Shown here in pieces: positions 50,231-64,000 of a stretch of DNA of 64,000 nt (its first letter is position 1; the number at the start of each line of letters is the position of its first letter). The notes beneath the pieces are model-generated. The model had not been told where the DNA came from and did not search any database. It saw only the letters and a list, made by a program, of their open reading frames with translations. Where the stretch lies: the NCBI GenBank assembly GCA_963758525.1, contig CAVWVQ010000003.1, forward strand, positions 2,560,001-2,624,000. Reading direction: 5' to 3'. Made by a program: the position numbers and the translations under genes. This DNA comes from an uncultured Phycisphaerales bacterium (GTDB taxonomy: Bacteria > Planctomycetota > Phycisphaerae > Tepidisphaerales > Tepidisphaeraceae).

Positions 50231-51918
50231 GTGTCACGGATTCAACCCGCAGCTCAGCCCCTGCCCGCCGCCGCAACTGCATCGCCGACGGTTCCACAAC
50301 CGCCTGCCGCGCCGGGCTCTGAAATGATCGCTGCCGCGGGCAAGCGATTGGTCGATTGTCTTCGCCCCGAAGACGAGCTTGAGGTTCTGATCCGTGCCCG
50401 GTATCCGATCATCTACGTCCTCACCTGGGAAGAAGAGCGGGTGGAAAAAGTGCTGGCGGAAATCGCCGCCGCGCGCAGCAAGAAATTCCACGTCTGGTCT
50501 TACACCCAGGGAATCGTCAAGTACGGCGCCGAGCCGCAGCGCGCCAAATCCGGTACGGGCAGCACCACCGATCCGCTGTCGGCCCTGGACGCGGTGTTGC
50601 AGCACGTCGAGCCCGCGATTTATCTCTTCAAGGATTTTCATCCGTTCACCGAAGAGAACCGCGCTAATCTGGCCGTGATCCGGCGGCTGAAGGACGTCGC
50701 ATATCATCTGCGCGACACCTACAAGACGATTGTGATCGTCGCGCCGGTGATGCGAATCGCTCCCGAGCTGGACAAGGACATCACCGTGGTGCAGTTCCTG
50801 CCGCCGGATGTGAATGACTTCAGCAAGCTGCTCGATCGGATCATCGAGGATTTGAAGGACAAGCCGCAGATCAAGATCAATCTCGACGCCGCCGGCCGCG
50901 AGCGGCTGGTGCACGCGGCGCTGGGCCTGACGCTCAAGGAGGCAGAAAACGTCTTCGCCAAAACGCTGGTTCTGGAAGGCACGATCGACACGGAGGACAT
51001 CAGCATCGTCTTTAGTGAAAAGCAGCAGATCATCCGCAAGAGCGGCCTGCTCGAGTATTTCGCCAGCGACGAGCAGTTCTCCCATGTCGCGGGGATGGAC
51101 AATCTCAAGCAGTGGCTCGTGAAGCGCAGCAGCGCCTTTACCGAGCGCGCCGCCAAGTTCGGTCTTCCCTCGCCTCGCGGGCTTCTGCTGCTGGGCGTGC
51201 AGGGGTGTGGAAAGAGCCTTTGCGCAAAAGCGGTGGCAAGTCTTTGGAAGTTGCCGTTGTTGCGATTCGACGTCGGCCGCATGTTTGGGAGCCTGGTGGG
51301 CTCCAGCGAAGACAATATTCGCCGTGCCATTCAGACTGCCGAGAGCGTCGCTCCCGCCATTCTCTGGGTGGACGAGATCGACAAGGCCTTTGCCGGGTCC
51401 GTCGGCTCCGGCGGAAGCGACGGAGGCACTGCCGCCCGCGTGTTCGGCACGTTCCTCACCTGGCTGTCAGACAAAACCGCGCCGGTCTTCGTCATCGCGA
51501 CGGCCAATGACATCAGCCAGTTGCCGCCCGAATTGCTCCGCAAAGGCAGGCTCGACGAAATATTCTTCGTCGATCTCCCCAACGCGCCGGAGCGGCGGGC
51601 CGTCTTTTCGATTCATCTGCAAAAGCGCGGACGCGCGCCGGAAAACTTCGATCTCGATACGCTCGTGCAGCGTTGCGACGGCTTCAGCGGCGCTGAGATC
51701 GAGCAGGCGATCGTGTCGGGTTTGTTCGACGCATTTGACGCGGGGCACGAGCTCGACACCGCCACGCTGCTGGTCAGTCTGGAGGAGACCGTTCCCCTCT
51801 CCAAGACAATGAGCGAAGATCTCAATCGACTGCGCACCTGGGCGCAGGGCCGGGCGCGCCCGCTTCGGGCGCCATTGCGTCCGCGGCGCCCGCAGCGCGC
51901 CGGAAGATCGAACTGTGA
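50231..51918 (+). CDS. Ycf46-like AAA+ ATPase (apparent frameshift near 51860; true C-terminus ...ARRKIEL*)
   Basis: [84 protein letters not shown]; start 50231 or 50323. Confidence 0.88.
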
Positions 51919-51943
51919 AGATGGAATTTCACCGGAGGCATCC

Positions 51944-52411
51944 ATGAGTTCCTGCATCATCGTGACCCCGTTGATCATTGCCGGCTGGCCTGTCATTTCC
52001 GCCGCGGTGACTGCCGCAGTGGGAAGCCTGGGATACAGCATCGTCGTTGCGCCTTCGACCGCGGCCCTTGCCGCCTCGAAGCTCAAAACCCTCAATCGCG
52101 CGGAAATCGATCTTGAGGACAGCGAAGTGCTTCAGGAGACCGGATCAACAGGCGGCCAGATCGTTGTCGAACGGGCCGGCATTCGGGCCGTCTTCACGCG
52201 CGACGCTCGCGGCGCGCTGAAGCTGTGCGTTGAAGGCGAAGGGCATTCCAAGTCTGACTTGAAAAAAATCGGCGAAGAGCTCATCGGCCGGGTGACGCAG
52301 CAATATGCCTATCACAAGATCGTCTCCGAGCTGCAAAACCGCCACATGTCGATCGTGGACGAAGAGGTGACCGCCGACCGGACTGTGAAAATCCGCGTCC
52401 GCAATTTGTAG
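51944..52411 (+). CDS. DUF1257-like protein with hydrophobic N-terminus
   Basis: Own GGAGG RBS; ends VTQQYAYHKIVSELQNRHMSIVDEEVTADRTVKIRVR, the DUF1257/Ycf35-type C-terminal pattern. Confidence 0.72.
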   Translation: MSSCIIVTPLIIAGWPVISAAVTAAVGSLGYSIVVAPSTAALAASKLKTLNRAEIDLEDSEVLQETGSTGGQIVVERAGIRAVFTRDARGALKLCVEGEGHSKSDLKKIGEELIGRVTQQYAYHKIVSELQNRHMSIVDEEVTADRTVKIRVRNL

Positions 52412-52420
52412 AGGAATGCC

Positions 52421-52630
52421 ATGGCTCAGGAAGAACTCGAGATCGAAATCGCACCGGATGGGAAAGTGACTGTCACAACGAAAGGGATTAAGGGCCCCGC
52501 CTGCATGGACTACGCGGATCTGATCGCCCAGATCGTCGGCCGCGAGGAAAGCCGAGTGAAGACCGCCGAGTACTATGAGGAAGCCGAGCAGACCGAGCGC
52601 CGCGTCGATATCAAGCAACGGCGAGGATGA
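52421..52630 (+). CDS. DUF2997 family protein
   Basis: AGAGGA RBS; EIEIAPDGKVTVTTKGIKGPACMD...TAEYY. Confidence 0.85.
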   Translation: MAQEELEIEIAPDGKVTVTTKGIKGPACMDYADLIAQIVGREESRVKTAEYYEEAEQTERRVDIKQRRG

Positions 52631-55927: not shown

Positions 55928-56107
55928 GAAGGCACGGAGGCACGAAGGGAAGGAGAAGCAAGCGCAACTTGGAGGTCAACAATGCATCGATTCGCCAAAC
56001 GGCACCGCCGTGGCTTGCCCTTCGCGGCCGGTTCCAAGGACGCACCGCTTCCACCTCTCCTGTTCCTTCCCTTCGTGCCTCCGTGCCTCCGTGCCTTCGT
56101 GCCTTCC
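55928..56107. repeat. Inverted octamer repeat cluster (GGCACGRA / TYCGTGCC)
   Basis: gaaggcacggaggcacgaagggaagga ... tccttcccttcgtgcctccgtgcctccgtgccttcgtgccttcc. Confidence 0.75.
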
Positions 56108-56167
56108 CCTCGTTGCCTTCCCCTCAATTGACTGCCTTTTTAGCCACCGATACGATACCCCCTCGCT

Positions 56168-56258
56168 GGAGAGATGGCCGAGTGGCTGAAGGCGACGGTT
56201 TGCTAAACCGTTATACGGAGTCAAATCCGTATCCGGGGTTCGAATCCCCGTCTCTCCG
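56168..56258 (+). tRNA. tRNA-Ser (anticodon GCT), CCA not encoded
   Basis: GGAGAGA acceptor pairs with TCTCTCC; anticodon arm acggt-ttGCTaa-accgt; long variable arm; GGTTCGAATCC T arm. Confidence 0.95.
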
Positions 56259-56300
56259 TTCTAAAACTGGTCTCGTTCGCAAATGGCTTAATTGAAGCAC

Positions 56301-56346
56301 TTTCGCAACGGTGGTATGCTGTTTATCCGCCGTTGTGAAACTTTTT
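56301..56346 (+). terminator. Hairpin plus T tract downstream of the tRNA (possible terminator / att arm region)
   Basis: tttcgcaacggtgg ... ccgccgttgtgaaa stem with G-T pairs, then ctttt; TTGTGAAA direct repeat at 56333 and 56345. Confidence 0.45.
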
Positions 56347-56395
56347 GTGAAAGAATCGGCATCCATTCAGCCGGTTCTTTCGGAGCTTCAAGATT

Positions 56396-57772
56396 ATGCC
56401 CACCACAAAAAAGCCACGTCCGACTGCTCATTCCGGTCACACCGATAGAGGGAACATCCGCGATCTGAAAATTCAGCGAGTGGGAAATGTGACCATCTAC
56501 AAGCGGGGACCAAGCTACTACCTGTATTACCGCGAGGATGGCAGCAGTCAGCGGCGCAAGGTCGAAGGCAACCTGGCAGTCGCCAAAGCCTCCGCCGCCA
56601 AGGTCGCCGCGGCTCTGGCCGAACAGCGACCCTCGCCGCTGGGATTTCAGCGGACCGCCCCTGGCGCGTTTGTCACCGGGTATCTGGACTTTGTCGAGAA
56701 TGTCCAGGGCCTGGCTTGGCGTACGGTCGACCGTTACCGGGCGGCCCTCGACCGCCTTCTGGACTTCTGCACGGACACGGGTGTCACTGCGATCGACGCC
56801 ATCGATGAGGCCACCATCGAGGATTTGGTCCGCTGGCTGCGTGGACAGACTCGAACCCGCAACGGCTGCGAAAAGGGCACCCGGGACTTGTACAAGGTCG
56901 GCGGAATCAAGTTCATCCTGAGCACCTGCCGCACCGCCTTCAATTGGGCTGGCCGGCGACGGATGCTCCCTCCGTATGTCGAGAATCCCTTTAGCCGGTT
57001 CCCCATTGATCAACTCCGCGACTCTGAGGCGGATGAGGAGGACCTCCACGTCTTCACCCCGGAGCAGGAGAAGGCATTCTTCGCAGCCTGCTCGGACTGG
57101 CAGAAGGCGCTGTTTCTGCCCCTGGCGACGTACGGCATGCGGGTCGGTGAGTGGACCCACGTGCTGATCGAGAACGTCGACTTCAAGGACGGGACGATCC
57201 AGATCTCCTCCAAGCCCGAGATGTTCTGGCGGGTGAAGACGGCCCGGCGGCGCTGGCTCCCCCTCACGGCCGAGATGACCGTGTTGTTGAAGAAGCTGAT
57301 CGGCCGGCGTACGGCGGGGTTCGTGCTGCTCAATGAGCATCAGTTCAAGGGTGACAAACTTCCCGCGAGCGAGTTTGTCTCGGATGAGCAGTTCCGCAAG
57401 CACCTGGCAACGCTGGTCGCGGAGCTAGAGGGCAAGAATCCCCAAGCAAGTAAACGCGACAAGCGGCGGGTTGTCACCGCCTTCTGCCGGTCACTCGGGC
57501 AGGTGCCAGTCAAGCGGGTGCAGAGCGAGTTCTGTGAGCTGACACGAGAAATCGGATGCCCGGACTTCACCCGGACGCACGACTTGCGGCACCTTTTTGC
57601 CACGCGTGCCCAGGAAACCGGGACTAATCCGATCTTGGTGTCGCAGATCACGGGGCATCGCTCGCTAGAGATGCTCAAGCGCTACACACACGCGAGCGTG
57701 GCCGCAAAACGCGAGGCGGTGGAGCGCATGACATCCCCGCAGCCTGAACTTCGAGAACCGAAAGATCCATGA
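56396..57772 (+). CDS. Tyrosine recombinase / integrase
   Basis: YGMRVGE (R), VKT (K), HDLRH (HxxR), TGH, RYTH (Y); N-terminal arm-like YYLYYREDG; TVDRYRAAL core-binding region. Confidence 0.92.
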   Translation: MPTTKKPRPTAHSGHTDRGNIRDLKIQRVGNVTIYKRGPSYYLYYREDGSSQRRKVEGNLAVAKASAAKVAAALAEQRPSPLGFQRTAPGAFVTGYLDFVENVQGLAWRTVDRYRAALDRLLDFCTDTGVTAIDAIDEATIEDLVRWLRGQTRTRNGCEKGTRDLYKVGGIKFILSTCRTAFNWAGRRRMLPPYVENPFSRFPIDQLRDSEADEEDLHVFTPEQEKAFFAACSDWQKALFLPLATYGMRVGEWTHVLIENVDFKDGTIQISSKPEMFWRVKTARRRWLPLTAEMTVLLKKLIGRRTAGFVLLNEHQFKGDKLPASEFVSDEQFRKHLATLVAELEGKNPQASKRDKRRVVTAFCRSLGQVPVKRVQSEFCELTREIGCPDFTRTHDLRHLFATRAQETGTNPILVSQITGHRSLEMLKRYTHASVAAKREAVERMTSPQPELREPKDP

Positions 57773-58795
57773 GCAAAAGTTCGAAGGACAAACGGCAACC
57801 AGAGCGATCCACGTCGGAAGTGAGTCGTCCGGCCCAGTGGCGGTCTCTATGGCGAGCCTTCAAGCAATCGTACCCCGATTGGATTGCCAGACTTCCCGTT
57901 GGAGAGGCAGTCTACGTTTTACCGGAACCGATCATTCGAGAGCTGACTTCGCCCCGCGGCGGACATCGGCGGCTTCCACCCTTGCTCGACGAGAACGGAT
58001 GCCCAGGCCGAACGTGCCTTCGAGCAAACCTGCCGGGAATTCGGAAAGTGGGTGATTGGGGTGTGCGAGGACAGCCCACTGCAGTTCCCATTACTCTTTG
58101 AATCGTGGAATGACGAGGCAAACCGGTCTGAAAATCCAGACTTCAGCGATGGCATTGTCCGTGCTCACCAGCAAATGTTGGCCTACGCAGGTTCGTTGTC
58201 GTTCTATAAACCCTACCGCCAGGAACTTGAACAGGTGAAACAGAAGTGGCTCGCGCTGCCAGCGCCGAAACCGGCTGCCGGCCCCTGGGCGTCAGAGCGC
58301 CTAGCTCGTCATTTCGGGGGGAGCCAAACCGGTGAAGAATACTATCAGCTTTATGATACCTTCCGTTCCAGGCGGCATCTGGCGATGTTGGTGAGCTGGG
58401 ACGTGCCGTGGCCGATGGGACCGGATGAATTTATTCCCGCCTCTTTTGCCAGCATTCCTTTCGGCCAATCCGGCGTGTTTGAGTATCACCCGCCTTTTTT
58501 GGACACGCCCCCAATGAGCGTTCGGCAAAAGCATGATCTCGCGGCAGCAATGGCGGAAATGTTCCCATACCTTCCCAAACTGCCCCCCATGCGGGTCGTC
58601 AGGCAAGGTTCCGGCCCCAATGAGTACGAGACGTCATTCCGAATGTGGCTGGTTGAGCTGACCGCTCGCCGACACTACAGCAACCTCCGGGGTATGTCGG
58701 AGGCGATGATTCGCGGTTTTGCAACACACCTGAATCGCACTGAGGAGCACGTGAAACGGCTGCGAAGAATGTACACCCGATTTCTCACATCCTGA
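57769..58795 (+). CDS. Hypothetical protein coupled to the integrase (frameshift near 57993)
   Basis: ATGA overlap with the integrase; the frames join as LLDE/TDAQAERAFEQTCREFGKWVIG; HTH-like end FATHLNRTEEHVKRLRRMY. Confidence 0.6.
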
Positions 58796-58837
58796 GCCAT
58801 TTCGTCCCCGCCGCACAAAAACAACACTTCCCGAATA

Positions 58838-58867
58838 AGGGCGCAATCCACATGCGGATTGCGCCCT
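58838..58867. promoter_or_regulatory. Perfect 12-bp inverted repeat upstream of xis (operator or terminator)
   Basis: agggcgcaatcc-acatgc-ggattgcgccct. Confidence 0.45.
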
Positions 58868-58901
58868 CGTTGAGTCTTTTGGTGTTTTGATAATCAGGTT
58901 C

Positions 58902-59222
58902 ATGTTAGTTCATCGACCACGGCATGAGGTCCATGCTGGCTCATTTCCGGAAGAGCCAGCGGCCACGCCCACCATGGGTTTAGGCTCGCCGTGGATGACA
59001 CCGCCGGCGGCTGCTGAGTACCTCGGCATTGCCTTGGGCACGCTGCGCAACTGGACGTCCGCTCGTTTTGTTCCATTCGCAAAAAAAGGTCGCCTCGTCC
59101 GCTACCACCGCGACGCCCTGGATCGATGGCTGTCCCGTGGTAGTTGTCCTGGTCGTGCCACCTTCGCGGCCACGATGCATAGCCGTTCCAACTCGCCGGA
59201 AGACAACGGAGCAAACCCCTGA
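58902..59222 (+). CDS. Excisionase-like HTH protein
   Basis: WMTPPAAAEYLGIALGTLRNW...VPFAKKGRLVRYHRDALDRWL; start uncertain. Confidence 0.85.
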   Translation: MLVHRPRHEVHAGSFPEEPAATPTMGLGSPWMTPPAAAEYLGIALGTLRNWTSARFVPFAKKGRLVRYHRDALDRWLSRGSCPGRATFAATMHSRSNSPEDNGANP

Positions 59223-59277
59223 CAAAAAATTAGGCGGCATTCCGGTCAAGGTTACGCCGCCCGTGAGGAAACGAACT

Positions 59278-60015
59278 ATGACACATTATAAATCACAATC
59301 CGCCAATTCGCAAGATAATTCCAATGTTGATTTGCGTGAAAAACTCTATAACGACCGAGAAATCGGTCCCGTCACCATCTCGGATCCCGAGTCGATCATC
59401 ACACGACTGCACGGAATCTTGCTGGACGTCGATCCGCTGAACTATCGCAAGTCGCGAGGTGCAAATGTACGGAGCAACCCAGAAAAGTTTTACCTAAGAG
59501 TCATTAAGACGATGCTCCTCCGGCACGCTGTACTGGCGCGTGCGGAGGTCCGTCTCAGCGGCACCGGGCTGCACATCATCATCTGGTTCGCCGAGCCCGT
59601 GGAACTGAAGACCGAGGGTGATCGGCTCAGGTGGGTAGCGATCATCAAAGCCATCCAGCGACTGCTCCCGACGGACCATCTTGCACCGGCCATCACCGCG
59701 ATGACCCGCCCGTTAGGCAGCCGCAATGGCAAGAATCAGAAAAAAGTAAAATGTCTGCACAGGGGCGAACCGGTGCCGCCGGCCGACATTCTCAAACTCT
59801 TCGATCAACTGTCCGCCAAACCCTTCGCAACCGTCGCTCAAGTGCTGTTCGGGGAAGGTCCAATCCGACCTTGTCCCATTTGCAATGGCGAAGGTAGTTC
59901 GCTTGGTGTCCTCAGCGCGACGGGAAAATGCTATGGGGGATGCGGGAAGGTGAAGCTCAGCCAACTGTATGACGTCTTTCTGGAAACGAAGCTTTCTGCC
60001 GGAAAGGGAAACTAG
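59278..60015 (+). CDS. AEP/RepB-type primase-like protein with C-terminal Zn finger
   Basis: ILLDVD (DxD), LSGTGLHIIIW (SGxGxH), TD..MTRPLGSRNGK; CPIC...CYGGC. Confidence 0.72.
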   Translation: MTHYKSQSANSQDNSNVDLREKLYNDREIGPVTISDPESIITRLHGILLDVDPLNYRKSRGANVRSNPEKFYLRVIKTMLLRHAVLARAEVRLSGTGLHIIIWFAEPVELKTEGDRLRWVAIIKAIQRLLPTDHLAPAITAMTRPLGSRNGKNQKKVKCLHRGEPVPPADILKLFDQLSAKPFATVAQVLFGEGPIRPCPICNGEGSSLGVLSATGKCYGGCGKVKLSQLYDVFLETKLSAGKGN

Positions 60016-60017
60016 CG

Positions 60018-61439
60018 ATGCCAGCAAAGTCCCCGACAACCGGCGATCAGCTCGCCGAGCAACTCATGCAGGCGATCCGCGACGCCCAGCATGCACCGCT
60101 GCTAGGTGCGAGGGATCTCCCGATCCTTCGGGGACTGTCGCCCTATGGCACTTTTAGCGAGCCGCAGGAGAACGTGCTAGTCCGTGCGATAGGATTGTTG
60201 CGGGCAACAGGCCGCGTGTATGCGTATGGCAACTCGGTGGTGTTTGACACTACGATCGCCGGTCAGGGTAGATGTCTGCTGCCGTTGCGAAACGGCACCA
60301 CAATCGAACCAACCGCCAAACGTCTGCTGAGCAATGTAATGGTATGTGCTGACGGCGACGAGCAGTTTCCGCCGCCGGACTGGTTTGTCAGCATGCTTTT
60401 GCTCGCTGAACCGCTGCTGGACCACCTGCCCCGCATCCAGACGTACATGCGACGTCCGGCGTTTGACGCCAATTTCAATCTTTGCGGGCCGGGCTTCCAT
60501 TCTTCCGAAGGGATTCTTGTACACGGGCCGGAGATTGAGCCCGTTATCTTTGTACCGGCTGATCCAAATCTGTCGGCCGTGCAACGGCTGCCGATCCACT
60601 TGCGGACATTTCTCGGCGGCTTCTGTTTTCGCTCGGATGCGGATTTGGCGAACACGATCGCAATCCTAATTACCGGCCTGCTCGTCAATCACTTCATCAA
60701 ATATGGCAAGCCAATTGTACTGATCGACGGAAATCAGCCTGATGTTGGAAAGTCCCTGCTCGTCCAAGCCATCGGCGTGTTGTTTGACGATAGCGTCCCG
60801 CCGGACATTCGGTACACATCGGACGACGAGGAACTCGCAAAGTTGATCTGTGCAGCTCTGCGTGAAGCAGCAACTTCGATTTTACATATCGACAACGCCA
60901 AGAACGCCAGCAGCGTCGGCATCTCCAGCCCCACCATCGAATCACAATCATTGGCTCCCGAAATTTGCCTGCGCATCCTCGGCCATTCCAGCATGCTGCG
61001 TCGGCCCAATGACTTGATCTGGTGCATCACGATGAACAAGACGAAGGCGTGCGGCGACATTGTTTCACGGGACGTGCCGGTCCAGCTTTTCTACGACGGC
61101 CGCACAGAAGATCGCAGGTTTGAAGGTCCCAACCCGCTCGATTATGCACGCGAACATCGCATTCAAATCCTGGGTGAACTGGCGGGAATGATCATCCAGC
61201 ACAATCAGCACGGACGGCCCGACGGAATACGCACACATCGCTGTCGCCACTGGGCTCGGCTCGTAGGGGGCATCATGCAGTCAGCGGGATTCCCAGAGTT
61301 CCTCTCAAACGCCCAAACGGTTGCCGCAACATTCAACTCAGAACTCGATGAGCTTGCCGCTTTGATCGAAGTCATGGTCGCTGGCGGCGGACCATTTATG
61401 GTGGTTGGAAATAACCCAACTGATACTGATGAGGTTTAA
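60018..61439 (+). CDS. P-loop NTPase, putative primase-associated helicase
   Basis: DGNQPDVGKS (Walker A), LHIDN (Walker B), RILGHS, ITMN, IVSR; immediately after the primase. Confidence 0.7.
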   Translation: MPAKSPTTGDQLAEQLMQAIRDAQHAPLLGARDLPILRGLSPYGTFSEPQENVLVRAIGLLRATGRVYAYGNSVVFDTTIAGQGRCLLPLRNGTTIEPTAKRLLSNVMVCADGDEQFPPPDWFVSMLLLAEPLLDHLPRIQTYMRRPAFDANFNLCGPGFHSSEGILVHGPEIEPVIFVPADPNLSAVQRLPIHLRTFLGGFCFRSDADLANTIAILITGLLVNHFIKYGKPIVLIDGNQPDVGKSLLVQAIGVLFDDSVPPDIRYTSDDEELAKLICAALREAATSILHIDNAKNASSVGISSPTIESQSLAPEICLRILGHSSMLRRPNDLIWCITMNKTKACGDIVSRDVPVQLFYDGRTEDRRFEGPNPLDYAREHRIQILGELAGMIIQHNQHGRPDGIRTHRCRHWARLVGGIMQSAGFPEFLSNAQTVAATFNSELDELAALIEVMVAGGGPFMVVGNNPTDTDEV

Positions 61440-61440
61440 T

Positions 61441-61944
61441 ATGTCTACACCAAAAGAAATTGCAAAACCGGGCTCGGAACTGGATAGACACTTTCGCGCT
61501 GCAAACGTTCATGTCGAAGAACTTGAATCGTGCAAAAGCAATCGCGCCAAGGCGATCAAGATCGGCCAGTTCCTCGGACCAGTCGTGGGGCGTGAGGTTC
61601 CCATTCAGGTGAAGGGCCGCACAGGAAAAGCGATTCTCAAATCCCTCGACGGCCGGAGTGGACAGAAGCTCTATTACGCCGAGATTCGCTGGGACAGGCA
61701 ACAAGGCAGCGAATCGTCGCCTGCCACGATGCCCAAGATGCCCGCGGCAAATATGACTCCTGGCGGTGAACCTCGGCAAGCTGCGAAAAAGACAGGCGGC
61801 AAAACCCAAACCGCTCAAGAGCGTGAGACAAATGAACAGGGACGTCGACCAACACAACCTGCCGCCAAAGACAAGCTGAAGGTGACGACCCCAACGAGAA
61901 CAAAGGCAAAACCAGACGCTGCCGGCAACGTGGAGAAATGGTGA
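61441..61944 (+). CDS. Hypothetical basic protein
   Basis: GAGG RBS; starts 1 nt after the NTPase stop; low-complexity K/T/P-rich tail. Confidence 0.6.
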   Translation: MSTPKEIAKPGSELDRHFRAANVHVEELESCKSNRAKAIKIGQFLGPVVGREVPIQVKGRTGKAILKSLDGRSGQKLYYAEIRWDRQQGSESSPATMPKMPAANMTPGGEPRQAAKKTGGKTQTAQERETNEQGRRPTQPAAKDKLKVTTPTRTKAKPDAAGNVEKW

Positions 61945-62198
61945 ATGGTGAATAGCGTCAGACGGTATTCACCACTGATATTCATCACAGTTATGTCTCT
62001 GTAGGACAGAGGTTTATGCGAAAGTGGTGAATGTGGTGAATGTTTGCAGGGTCTATACACATGAGTACCAATCACAAACAACCAAATACTACCCTGCCGC
62101 GACGAGGGTAATTTTTAGCCCCAACATTCACCATTTGCCGTAACTGACCAGCAGACAAAGTTTTACCGGTGGTGAATGTTGCCGTGCGGGTATTCACC
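61940..62198. repeat. Iteron-like array, 8 exact GGTGAAT copies in both orientations (putative origin)
   Basis: Forward at 61940, 61947, 62026, 62035, 62171; reverse (ATTCACC) at 61967, 62126, 62192; AT-rich spacers. Confidence 0.75.
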
Positions 62199-62215
62199 AA
62201 CAAGAGAAAAAAGCC

Positions 62216-64000
62216 ATGAAAGTCACTTTTGGCCACAAGTCCTACCCCTTCCGCCCCTGGAAGCCTGAGATGGGTAAGGTGTTCTCCACGGTGTTCTCGT
62301 TCGACTCAGAAACGACGCTAATCGACACCGACCGCCCCTGGATCACCCCCGCATACGTGATCGGCGCAGTCTGCGGCGTCACCAGGAACGGCGGTGTTGA
62401 AGGTTTTTTTCTTCACCGCCAGCATGTCGCCGCATTCTTCGAGCTGCACCGCAATGTGCTGTTCGTGGCGCACCACGCTACGTTCGATTTGGCGGTCATA
62501 GATGTGGTTGCGCCCCGTCTGGACATCTATGGATGGGTCGACCGAAATCAAGTGTGGGATACGCAACTGCTGCACAAGCTGCTGGCGCTGGCGACTGAGG
62601 GTCATGTCGCCGGGGGCAAAGACCAATCCACACTCGAAACCTGCGTTCAGAAATACCTAGGAGTTGAGTTACCGAAAGACGTGGTGGATTCACGGGGCCA
62701 AGCTGTGCGACTTTCCTACGGACGCTGGTTGCGGGCGGCACCGTCAGAAATCGAGCCCATCTACCTTAATTACTTGGCAAAAGACGCCATCGCCACATTT
62801 CGGCTGTTCCTTGAGCTTCGCCGCCGCCACATTGACATTCTGTACAGTGCTAGTGACACGTGGGGGTTTGTCTCGGAGACGTGGCTCAAACGACAAATCT
62901 GTCTGTGGGGTTTCCAGACGCACCACATTCAGCTTCGCGCCGAGATTGTCCTCGGCAAGATCAGCGGCAACGGTCTGCATCTTGACCTGTCTCGCCGTGA
63001 CGCTCTGGCCGATACATTTGAAAACGTCGTCGTCGAAAAGAAAGAACAGCTCCGTGAATTCGGCTACCTTCCGGGTAAAGGGTCGGAGAAGGCGTTGCAG
63101 GCCATCTTCGCCCGACTGGAACGCAAGAATCCTGGGCTGAATTTTCCAAGAACTGATACGGGGAAGTTTTCCACCGCGCATGATGCGATCCAGGAGCTGT
63201 CAGATCATATCCCGTTTGCCAAGCTCCTGTTGGAATACCGCGAGGTGGAAAAACTGCGGGGGACATTTCTCACCAGAATGGTCAGACCCGTTCTTCATCC
63301 TTCGTTCCGCGCGATGACCCGGTCGGGCCGAGCGTCATCGCATGGTGAAATCAACAGCCAAAATCTTCCCAAGGACGATCGAATCCGCTCCTGTTTTGTG
63401 CCGTCGCCTGGTCACGTATTCATCGATGCGGACTATTCGACAGTCGAGATGGCCACACTCGCCCAGGCTTGCATCGGCCAGTTTGGATTGACATCGGGAA
63501 TGGGCAACGCGATCAATGCGGGCCAGGATCTGCACAAGCTGGTTGCCGCGAGAGTCACTGGCAAGCCGGTGGACCGGATCTCGAAGGCAGAGCGTCAGAA
63601 TGCAAAGCCAATCAATTTCGGCAAGCCCGGCGGGATGTCGAACAGAACATTGAAAGCGTACGCAAAGGCGAATTATGGCGTCGAGTTGACCGAACAAGAG
63701 GTCGAGGAGTTGTCCGATGCCTGGTTTGAACTGTTTCCTGAGATGAAAACATTTCTCAGCGATGAAAACAACCTCGGTCTGGAAATCGCAACACTATTCG
63801 AGCTGACCCCACAGTCGCACCACGAGCACTCCGGCGACACTCGATTTCTTAACCATCCGGAGAACGTAGGCTGTGGTGAACTGCCTCATCCGATTCTCGG
63901 CTGGATGTTGCTCAAGACTTCGGGGAGTCCAGATCCAGTAACACGAGGCAATCGGCCTTACCCAGCTTCCGACATAGACTATTTCTGGAGTGCCGTTGAG
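62216..64000 (+). CDS. Family A DNA polymerase with 3'-5' exonuclease, partial (595 codons, runs off the window)
   Basis: Open frame from ATG 62216 (absent from the ORF track): FDSET (ExoI), AHHATFD (ExoII), YLAKD (ExoIII), TRSGRASS..NSQNLP, DADYSTVE (motif A), DLH, RQNAKPINFG (motif B). Confidence 0.92.
   Translation, partial: MKVTFGHKSYPFRPWKPEMGKVFSTVFSFDSETTLIDTDRPWITPAYVIGAVCGVTRNGGVEGFFLHRQHVAAFFELHRNVLFVAHHATFDLAVIDVVAPRLDIYGWVDRNQVWDTQLLHKLLALATEGHVAGGKDQSTLETCVQKYLGVELPKDVVDSRGQAVRLSYGRWLRAAPSEIEPIYLNYLAKDAIATFRLFLELRRRHIDILYSASDTWGFVSETWLKRQICLWGFQTHHIQLRAEIVLGKISGNGLHLDLSRRDALADTFENVVVEKKEQLREFGYLPGKGSEKALQAIFARLERKNPGLNFPRTDTGKFSTAHDAIQELSDHIPFAKLLLEYREVEKLRGTFLTRMVRPVLHPSFRAMTRSGRASSHGEINSQNLPKDDRIRSCFVPSPGHVFIDADYSTVEMATLAQACIGQFGLTSGMGNAINAGQDLHKLVAARVTGKPVDRISKAERQNAKPINFGKPGGMSNRTLKAYAKANYGVELTEQEVEELSDAWFELFPEMKTFLSDENNLGLEIATLFELTPQSHHEHSGDTRFLNHPENVGCGELPHPILGWMLLKTSGSPDPVTRGNRPYPASDIDYFWSAVE

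Follow-up and report, generated by a model that had tools for sequence, protein, structure and literature searches.

A probable PICI-type replicon with its own family A DNA polymerase at the head of a large planctomycete island

Gene layout and integration site

The window is a 64,000-nucleotide stretch of planctomycete DNA, and the island genes within it all lie on the + strand downstream of tRNA-Ser(GCT). An earlier note on this DNA had read its last 7.7 kb as this tRNA followed by an integrase, a further gene, xis, a primase, an NTPase, a small gene, repeats and PolA, and each of them is found in that place and orientation. The features are as follows.

56167..56259, + strand: tRNA-Ser(GCT), the integration target (ARAGORN)
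56245..56260, + strand: attL core of 16 nt at the tRNA 3' end, direct repeat of the likely attR
56396..57772, + strand: tyrosine integrase, 458 aa (Pfam Phage_integrase, E 6e-20)
57769..58795, + strand: gene of no family match, split into overlapping frames of 110 aa and 247 aa (ORFs)
58838..58867, no strand: 15-bp inverted repeat 5' of the HTH gene, possible operator
58974..59222, + strand: HTH_17 excisionase/regulator (Pfam/PHROG), start uncertain, frame open from 58887
59278..60015, + strand: predicted AEP (RepB'-like) primase, 245 aa, with a C-terminal four-Cys zinc finger
60018..61439, + strand: predicted SF3 ring helicase (Rep; D5/SaPI-Rep-like), 473 aa
61441..61944, + strand: small gene, 167 aa, split-off C-terminal domain of the helicase
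61938..62199, no strand: likely replication origin with 8 iterons
62216..64000, + strand: family A DNA polymerase (PolA), 752 aa, continuing to C3:2624474 (474 nt past the window)

The catalytic set of the integrase, R249/H395/R398/H421/Y430, is complete. The gene behind it has no family match in Pfam or PHROG, and one homolog, in G439, spans both of its frames; the split is probably a frameshift, either real or an assembly indel. As had been noted, the 7.7 kb has no match to capsid, terminase or conjugation genes, save for a weak HTH-level match of the Xis gene to the terminase small subunit family (E 0.007). A promoter and terminator scan gave signal at chance level.

The attR copy of the tRNA 3' end, which the earlier note had anticipated downstream, is likely the 16-nt repeat at C3:2766305-2766320, 150 kb away and beyond the window, giving a total span of 150,076 bp. 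The core is short, with three exact copies genome-wide. The crossover position is identical in G439, where the target is also tRNA-Ser(GCT) and the integrase is 54% identical. When 20 kb around attR was compared with five relatives, all 19 DNA matches fell on its right side and none on its left. The GC content of the 150-kb span is 0.588, lower than in any of the contig's 490 150-kb windows. Because the tRNA end is repeated 150 kb away and composition and conservation shift there, the element is probably not of satellite size, and an island of cargo with a likely length of about 150 kb is indicated instead. No empty site was found among the close relatives (40 searched); tRNA-Ser(GCT) and the gene to the right of attR are non-adjacent in the returned loci, and synteny around the tRNA is not preserved among close relatives. 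These tallies take in the unpublished genome G404, and no claim depends on G404 alone.

Predicted replication proteins and candidate origin

The 245-aa protein is predicted to be an AEP primase from its motifs and language-model neighbours. Its DxD, GxGLH, and PxD motifs are invariant in an alignment of 43 rows, and its Atlas neighbours at 0.95-0.96 are RepB_primase, AEP-TOTE, and DnaG Zn-ribbon clusters; sequence searches of Pfam, PHROG, and PDB returned no match. The predicted helicase has a Walker A motif at residues 238-246, a motif C asparagine (N340), and R351. A model of a fused homolog (47% identical) has a fold like those of D5, NrS-1, and SaPI PriRep1 (Z 12.8-14.4), and residues 22-563 of the model of helicase plus small gene align with the SaPI PriRep1 fold. 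The domain encoded by the small gene is joined to the helicase in L019, L020, L021, L022, L026, L034, and L037, and it matches residues 495-622 of the L020 fusion. Its modelled fold consists of three helices and three strands, is winged-helix-like, and ends in a disordered tail; all of its Atlas matches are below 0.9. The domain is predicted to bind the origin.

The iteron array is likely the replication origin. A 7-mer occurs eight times in 255 bp, and nowhere else in the 6.47-Mb genome does it cluster as densely, the runner-up having three copies. Over the whole window the 7-mer has 11 matches, a number reached by 12 of 100 shuffles and thus not above chance, so that the signal lies in the clustering. 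The layout is symmetric: an 86-bp spacer separates the central tandem pair from an inverted copy that it faces. The AT content of this spacer, only 55% here and 34-51% in other loci, counts against the assignment. The array sits between the same two genes, with a similar layout, in most related loci. A resemblance of the iterons to the origin repeat of phage P4 was considered but found no confirmation in the literature searched.

PolA is composed of the Pfam DNA_pol_A and 3'-5' exonuclease domains and has no 5'-3' exonuclease. Motifs A, B, and C and the exonuclease motifs DxE, D, and YxxxD are present, and 13 of 13 motif or catalytic positions expected to be fixed, exonuclease motifs included, are invariant in 42 of 42 PolAs. 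Motif B reads NFGKPGG, and a helical insertion of about 100 residues separates it from the FQG motif. Two of the signs that the earlier note had set against its own proposal, a grouping with host Pol I and a missing motif C, are both absent; motif C is kept (H679-D680) and the tree sets the protein apart. Host Pol I is a separate gene at C3:4354990 with 32% identity, and identity of PolA with it was rejected on the lack of a 5'-3' exonuclease, the separate gene, and the tree placement. In the tree, an 18-row planctomycete clade (SH-aLRT 99) lies inside a 71-row group with PolAs of uncultured viruses (100), and a branch of 0.71 (support 100) parts PolA from three PolAs of cultured phages and one of a cyanobacterial plasmid. 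The relatives of PolA number at least 119 at 51-75% identity. PolAs of cultured phages and plasmids gave distant matches only, none covering 80% of the query. The best PDB sequence match is 8jrb (E 1e-48), presumably from Aquifex. Two motifs of the PolA clade were sought in the supplement of Czernecki et al. and were not found in the portion searched.

Related loci and island spans

Among the 21 planctomycete loci that could be evaluated, 17 have the primase and helicase 5' of PolA. The module, whose synteny the earlier note had proposed to look for, recurs across Planctomycetota. An integrase is found upstream in 9 of the 13 ordered loci that have at least 7 kb of upstream sequence. The dN/dS values of integrase, primase, helicase, and PolA are 0.10-0.35 in two pairs of relatives; the replication module is under purifying selection in relatives. 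Decayed copies are many (G439, G440, G441, L016, and several fragments).

As no att copies were found within 10 kb of PolA in the loci tried, whole genomes were searched for att repeats. Of six other genomes tested, five have a related module at the head of an att-bounded span. These spans measure 66.7 kb with a 58-bp repeat, 76.3 kb with a 47-bp repeat, 89.2 kb with a 17-bp repeat, 161.4 kb, and 191.9 kb, a range of 67-192 kb; in G440 a downstream att copy is absent. We regard the locus as probably a PICI-type replicon that carries its own PolA and heads large cargo islands.

The genes common to these spans mostly end 9-13 kb past att and the remainder is unrelated cargo, so the spans may be composites. 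This points to another reading, in which only a small PICI- or VEIME-like satellite of about 11-20 kb, with PolA, is mobile, and the long spans are later accretions of elements and host DNA that are not moved whole. The left arm has the layout described for Gram-negative PICIs, unidirectional int, xis, pri, rep, and ori (PMC6092414), VEIMEs of less than 17 kb are described with a COG0749 polymerase (PMC9618062), and in L019 the two arms meet no more than about 13 kb from the tRNA. Nevertheless, no nearer att copy lies within 200 kb even when one mismatch is allowed, the six bounded spans range from 67 to 192 kb with no small one measured, neighbouring islands of the same tandem arrays are 40-78 kb, and no terS, capsid-remodelling, or interference genes are recognised. 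We consider the small mobile unit unlikely.

We then inspected the spans for structural and transfer genes. A six-frame search of the island's own span found terminase, portal, and capsid all absent, and a full head and tail module downstream, which the earlier note had named as the mark of an ordinary prophage, was not found. Within the six spans we found neither capsid nor portal, nor relaxase, coupling protein, or FtsK. The genes typical of ICEs, IMEs, and AICEs (relaxase, coupling protein, VirB4, or FtsK/SpoIIIE) were sought with PF10412, PF08751, PF03432, PF19044, and PF01580, all without a match in a span, and with PF13814, which had no match anywhere, controls included. An orphan terminase large subunit, without a portal, lies in the G444 span, and the other five spans have no terminase, portal, capsid, or tail gene. 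Outside the bounded set, the relative L022 has a Replic_Relax gene upstream.

That terminase invites the idea that the locus is what remains of the early genes of a prophage that decayed and lost its structural genes, and so do the IMG/VR contigs among the nearest outside relatives of PolA and a close copy of the module in G443, an IMG/VR provirus record with terminase, portal, and capsid (Pfam). The G443 module, however, starts at an orphan 3' half of a tRNA-Pro gene, and the prophage, which has its own integrase, is a separate unit lying upstream of it. The G443 copy is 95% identical across 13 kb to the G437 copy, which comes from a different source and heads a 76-kb att-bounded span without a phage structural match. 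When 34 proteins from the prophage side of G443 were compared with the six spans, the matches were the G444 terminase and a 57-aa ParB piece only. Together with the purifying selection on the module, these findings make a decayed prophage very improbable and largely refute it.

Comparison with known elements and proposed replication

The probable PICI-type replicon can be set beside several known systems. With PICIs and SaPIs it shares a specific att site, the order int-xis-pri-rep-ori, and the lack of structural genes (PMC6092414, PMC7581432), as well as an SF3 Rep with a C-terminal DNA-binding domain, predicted here, and two iteron sets flanking a spacer. The C-terminal domain of SaPI Rep binds iterons directly downstream (PMC7581432). 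The island differs in the proofreading PolA behind the origin, in spans of 67-192 kb versus about 15 kb, and in having no recognised terS or interference genes. PICIs are further marked by induction through helper phages, by packaging, and by interference.

For the marine satellites we take COG0749 to be PolA. A COG0749 DNA polymerase is reported in 117 VEIMEs, 40% of the module 6 marine satellites, and an integrase, a primase/helicase, the absence of a capsid, and in part of the VEIMEs a COG0749 polymerase are common to VEIMEs and the island (PMC9618062). VEIMEs are defined by concatemers in virions and measure less than 17 kb (PMC9618062); should the whole att-bounded span be the mobile unit, the island is too large to fit them. 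Pipolins resemble the planctomycete islands in tRNA integration, att repeats, a small core with large variable cargo that includes defence genes, integrases of several types, and the rarity of transfer genes (PMC11551731). Their polymerase is a primer-independent family B enzyme (PMC11551731), whereas on the island PolA is accompanied by a distinct primase, a helicase, and an iteron origin.

The SCCmec CcPol-MP-Cch2 module is likewise a cargo-island system with an A-family polymerase, a helicase, and a downstream iteron origin (PMC7581432, PMC10061031). CcPol is described as a truncated, non-proofreading primase that replaces the canonical one, with an SSB-like partner and serine recombinases (PMC7581432, PMC10061031); unlike it, the polymerase here is a full Klenow-type PolA beside a predicted AEP primase and a tyrosine integrase. 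TV-Pols are PolA-related enzymes of mobile elements, in planctomycetes too, where they occur together with an integrase and a D5 helicase, but the published account gives them as minimal 400-600-aa cores never bearing nuclease domains, and PolA here has an intact 3'-5' exonuclease (PMC2579912). PolA3 and the Hot Spring (Aquificae-like) PolAs are auxiliary, proofreading, free of a 5'-3' exonuclease, and have phage relatives (PMC12926913, PMC10201439); they differ from PolA here by its NFGKPGG motif B, 100-aa insertion, and long branch in the tree. As family A polymerases have already been described on other mobile elements (VEIMEs, SCCmec CcPol, and TV-Pols), the earlier note's PolA-using integrative class is not a new category. 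No description of the planctomycete PolA-island family was found in the literature searched, which mostly did not extend to subscription papers.

Gene order, intact motifs, att repeats, synteny, and purifying selection in relatives are established, and from them we propose how excision, replication, and transfer would proceed. The integrase, HTH gene, predicted primase and helicase, likely origin, and PolA would let an excised circle copy itself. Integrase and Xis would recombine attL with attR, the winged-helix-like helicase domain would bind the iterons, and the symmetric iteron layout suggests that two helicase rings may be loaded head to head. The AEP primase would then prime, and PolA would elongate and proofread in place of host Pol III, with the host supplying primer removal and single-strand binding. 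Such replication would stabilise or amplify the circle ahead of re-integration or transfer.

The island could instead be real and bulk synthesis be left to host Pol III as in PICIs, with PolA an accessory in origin primer extension, Okazaki maturation, or gap filling during integration or repair. PICI pri-rep-ori maintains a plasmid without an element polymerase (PMC6092414), and CcPol of SCC is proposed to pass on to the host polymerase (PMC7581432). No SSB, clamp, or 5'-3' exonuclease gene is recognised beside PolA, and two further helicase homologs in the same genome lack an adjacent PolA. Yet PolA keeps full proofreading, is encoded immediately after the origin, and clusters in the tree with viral PolAs that are linked to primase-helicases, and the pairing persists with different primase/helicase types in L038, G444, and L091. 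An accessory role is thus improbable, less likely even than the small mobile unit.

As recognisable transfer machinery is absent, the island is most likely carried along by phages or other elements, by analogy with proposals for pipolins and SCC. How islands of 70-190 kb spread without transfer genes is a question shared with SCCmec and pipolins. More tentatively, and with some doubt, the planctomycete loci may form an unnamed class of 70-190 kb self-synthesising elements that move whole, without their own virion or known conjugation, and carry a T7-style replisome of AEP primase, SF3 helicase, bidirectional iteron origin, and PolA, whose 100-aa insertion would serve processivity or helicase docking. 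If the proposed replication is true, the island would be to family A polymerases what pipolins are to family B: a replicon that sits on large cargo islands and does not depend on a host polymerase, in a phylum with barely described mobile elements. Spanning 5.2 kb from primase to PolA, origin included, the block is a compact candidate minimal replisome and a candidate cloning replicon for planctomycetes, which to our knowledge have few replicating vectors.

Replication module and its PolA

The element behind tRNA-Ser(GCT) is real, recurrent, and apparently unnamed, and it is intact but for one frameshifted gene of unknown function behind the integrase. All features that the earlier note had listed after the tRNA were found, and all are co-directional. 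The PolA gene is complete (62216-64474; positions beyond 64000 continue along the contig, and as the window is C3:2560001-2624000, adding 2,560,000 gives C3 coordinates) and encodes 752 aa with DNA_pol_A and 3'-5' exonuclease domains (Pfam). Its exonuclease residues D30, E32, D91, Y186, and D190 and polymerase residues D406, E411, R460, K464, F468, G472, H679, and D680 are invariant in 42/42 aligned homologs, and position 681 is Q or E. Motif C, on which the earlier note had made its reading depend, is present (H679, D680). The structure model is confident (pLDDT 90). Motif B and the FQG motif are 177-180 aa apart in 12 of 18 core-clade PolAs, the 12 being the rows that matched the search pattern, versus 80-81 aa in 19 host Pol I; over 67 viral rows, the median is 67. 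Hence, the element PolA carries an insertion of ~100 aa, which is helical and confidently modelled. The host Pol I is encoded separately, elsewhere in the source genome (G000), and is 32% identical to the element PolA. That the latter merely serves as an accessory to host Pol III seems improbable to us.

The 245-aa gene shows D50-x-D52, G95/H99, D133, and a Cys finger invariant across 43 rows, and its neighbours in the Atlas, at 0.95-0.96, are clusters of RepB_primase, AEP-TOTE, and Zn-ribbon primases. As it matched nothing in any profile library searched (Pfam, PHROG, PDB sequences), it is a predicted primase. The NTPase and the small gene form a single ORF in seven related loci. The fused form of one of them, L020, is 47% identical to the window NTPase and 36% to the window small gene, and was folded. 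The model matches D5, NrS-1, and SaPI PriRep1 with Z of 12.8-14.4 and rmsd of 4.5-6.7. The SaPI alignments extend to residues 552-563 and thus include the small-gene domain, whose three helices and three strands in the model we read as a winged helix. According to the relevant passage of PMC7581432, the C-terminal domain of SaPI Rep binds the iterons immediately downstream.

In the gap between the small gene and PolA, one 7-mer occurs eight times within 255 bp, five times in forward and three times in reverse orientation. No other cluster among the 1278 genome copies is as dense, and the runner-up has three. An outer inverted pair is followed by a central tandem pair with copies 9 bp apart; a spacer of ~80-90 bp then leads to an inverted copy and a further outer pair. 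Under one consensus, the forward tandem pair recurs in 17 of 21 intergenic regions examined; it was not found in L028, L032, L027, and L036, where variant repeats are visible. The PICI origin spacer is described as AT-rich in a passage of PMC6092414, whereas the element spacer, at 34-55% AT where well defined, is not strongly so.

Recurrence and phylogeny

The PolA protein search gave 283 matches among 7995 candidates scored, the best 119 of which (query excluded) are 51-75% identical. The gene is rare: at E 1e-60, it was seen in 3 of the 401 genomes of the phylum, with the source genome counted. From 77 GTDB loci, 37 were kept at at least 40% identity, and in 21 of these the PolA match is near full length and the sequence extends at least 3.2 kb upstream. 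The synteny that the earlier note had suggested searching for recurs: primase and helicase homologs precede PolA in 17 of the 21, and an integrase is present in 9 of the 13 among these 17 with at least 7 kb upstream. Integration targets are Pro, Ala, Val, Leu, and Ser tRNAs and orphan Arg- and Gln-like 3' halves read by eye, and the integrases split into several groups, which together point to module exchange. For integrase, primase, helicase, and PolA, dN/dS is 0.10-0.23 between loci L028 and L090 and 0.17-0.35 between L028 and L031. Broken copies are common in the family. In a separate locus (L083:1-4788), an integrase and Xis 58% and 70% identical to the window's are directly followed by a distant PolA, and homologs of the window's types of primase and helicase are absent, reflecting either module swapping or deletion.

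For the tree, 85 rows were hand-picked from the query and 165 extracted PolAs; 21 were close, 24 distant bacterial, 26 viral, 10 host Pol I, and 4 references. It was built by quick IQ-TREE under LG+G4 with SH-aLRT support only. The query falls in an 18-row planctomycete clade (99), nested in a 71-row group (100, stem 0.71) of mixed bacterial and IMG/VR PolAs. The element PolA is apart from host Pol I (98), and the grouping with it that the earlier note had considered was not seen. Eight of nine viral loci scanned have a primase or helicase family match nearby, and one has a tail lysozyme/endolysin match.

Probable extent and cargo of the island

The likely counterpart of the attR anticipated by the earlier note is a 16-mer copy of the tRNA 3' end at 206305, the sole copy within 200 kb even with one mismatch allowed. 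Since the genome has three exact copies of the 16-mer, it says little by itself. In 20 kb around this likely attR, 19/19 DNA matches to five family-level relatives lie to its right, and the 10.3 kb on the left side has none; the element's first 20 kb has one match beyond the tRNA itself. The GC content of the 150-kb span, 0.588, is lower than in all 490 150-kb windows on the contig. In G439, a relative also in tRNA-Ser(GCT) with a 54% identical integrase, attR begins at the same T-loop position. The conservation switch, low GC, and this crossover position support attR at 206305. In other genomes, the span was measured between the att beside the integrase and the following copy on the same strand; G440 has no att copy downstream.

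Att-to-att spans in other genomes
G437: 76.3 kb, 47-bp repeat
G438: 66.7 kb, 58-bp repeat
G439: 89.2 kb
G441: 191.9 kb
G444: 161.4 kb, more distant PolA and other primase/helicase types

Features beyond PolA
65425-66391: two small unknown genes, behind PolA here and in L019 and L053; the second also in L017, L020, and L034
66450-67394, minus strand: two-gene pair
179501-201376, oriented away from attR: right-arm block with AAA ATPase, ATP-dependent ligase, ThiF-like enzyme, PD-(D/E)XK nuclease, and unknowns

The minus-strand pair, which resembles a toxin-antitoxin pair, had no family match in profile searches. Among the cargo are type I R-M, GmrSD, Mrr, WYL, Ku, ligase, transposases, pilin-like clusters, and duplicated blocks. 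Parts of the right-arm block lie a few kb from PolA in L019, L049, and G444 and ~45 kb downstream in G440, positions that suggest an island of two arms with a cargo site in between. Genes common to the spans mostly end 9-13 kb past att. A small satellite buried within accreted DNA is a reading to which we give some, limited, credence.

Aside from these features, a near-exact ~5-kb duplication inside the island (C3:2691164-2696272 and 2711029-2715717), surrounded by a further inverted gene-cluster duplication, is either real or an assembly artefact. Just upstream of the tRNA, the host has an operon of an AAA ATPase and small partner genes (50231-52630), and the right-arm AAA ATPase block is laid out similarly. 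The 3' end of tRNA-Ser(GCT) has three more orphan copies, 18-19 nt long, at C3:1743636, C3:4954293, and C5:179183; they are possibly scars of older integrations. Downstream of eight other tRNA genes, orphan copies of the 3' end stand on the same strand at distances of 1-77 kb (Val 13 kb, Lys 1.2 kb, Gly 54 and 23 kb, Arg 6.8 kb, Met 25 kb, Gln 40 kb, Glu 53 and 77 kb), a pattern that suggests many integrated elements in this genome.

Transfer, known systems, and other loci

We scanned 113 of 151 own-span ORFs against NCBIfam and subsets from G437, G438, and G439 against Pfam. Six-frame searches covered six whole genomes for coupling protein, TrwC, MOBP relaxase, TraG/VirB4, FtsK, GpA terminase, and lambda portal, and five for Terminase_6N and HK97 capsid. 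In the own span, these searches gave no match to such genes, in line with the earlier note, which had seen no capsid, terminase, or conjugation genes in the visible 7.7 kb. Their only in-span match is a terminase in the G444 span, in which the lambda portal search found no portal. G444 has eight GpA-type terminase genes, most of 720-770 aa, versus a single lambda-type portal match; they may form a family of orphan terminases, mobile or domesticated. The single close IMG/VR match (G443) is a provirus record with terminase, portal, and capsid. Its phage genes lie upstream of an orphan tRNA-Pro half and the module comes after, 95% identical over 13 kb to the phage-free island of G437; we read the phage genes as belonging to a separate prophage that has an integrase of its own. 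A decayed prophage is a reading that we consider very improbable. A six-frame search for Replic_Relax (PF13814) matched nowhere, controls included. L022, which has no att-bounded span and no integrase within 10 kb, carries such a gene upstream of the primase (L022:4152-4814) and is a possible mobilisable variant.

We consider it fairly probable that the integrase and Xis would excise the island, that a PICI-type primase-Rep-ori together with PolA would replicate the circle, and that transfer would occur by hitchhiking. The replicon would work like that of PICI/SaPI, but the element's size precludes membership. It is organised like pipolins, from which its polymerase family separates it, and like SCC. 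PolA on such elements is not unprecedented: published cases are COG0749 in 117 VEIMEs (PMC9618062), CcPol (PMC7581432), and TV-Pol (PMC2579912). The element differs from CcPol and TV-Pol by its exonuclease and primase. A 12-kb cyanobacterial plasmid is annotated with helicase, PolA, and integrase. The literature searched gave no description of the planctomycete family; a 2026 polymerase survey or the Czernecki dataset may list members.

Other loci of the source genome were also recorded. A 40-kb island at tRNA-Gln (C3:4693012-4733139) has a helicase 26% related to the window's, ParB-like and thymidylate-synthase-like genes, and two unknown phage-family genes, without PolA, and is possibly a DNA-modification cluster. 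A satellite-like element adjoining tRNA-Cys (C1:47000-60400) has a 29% related helicase, terminase small subunit, head protease, RecT-like gene, and integrase. tRNA arrays lie at C3:3600074-3600529 (5 genes) and 3764011-3766477 (15 genes, one of them another tRNA-Ser(GCT)); L013 has a similar array immediately before a truncated PolA from the window PolA's clade. A tandem repeat with a period of ~38 bp (C3:4444786-4445528), where ARAGORN miscalls five tRNA-Ser, could be an array of CRISPR-like or other repeats. Ahead of the window tRNA, short repeats (55990-56120) recur widely in this and related genomes as a REP-like family.
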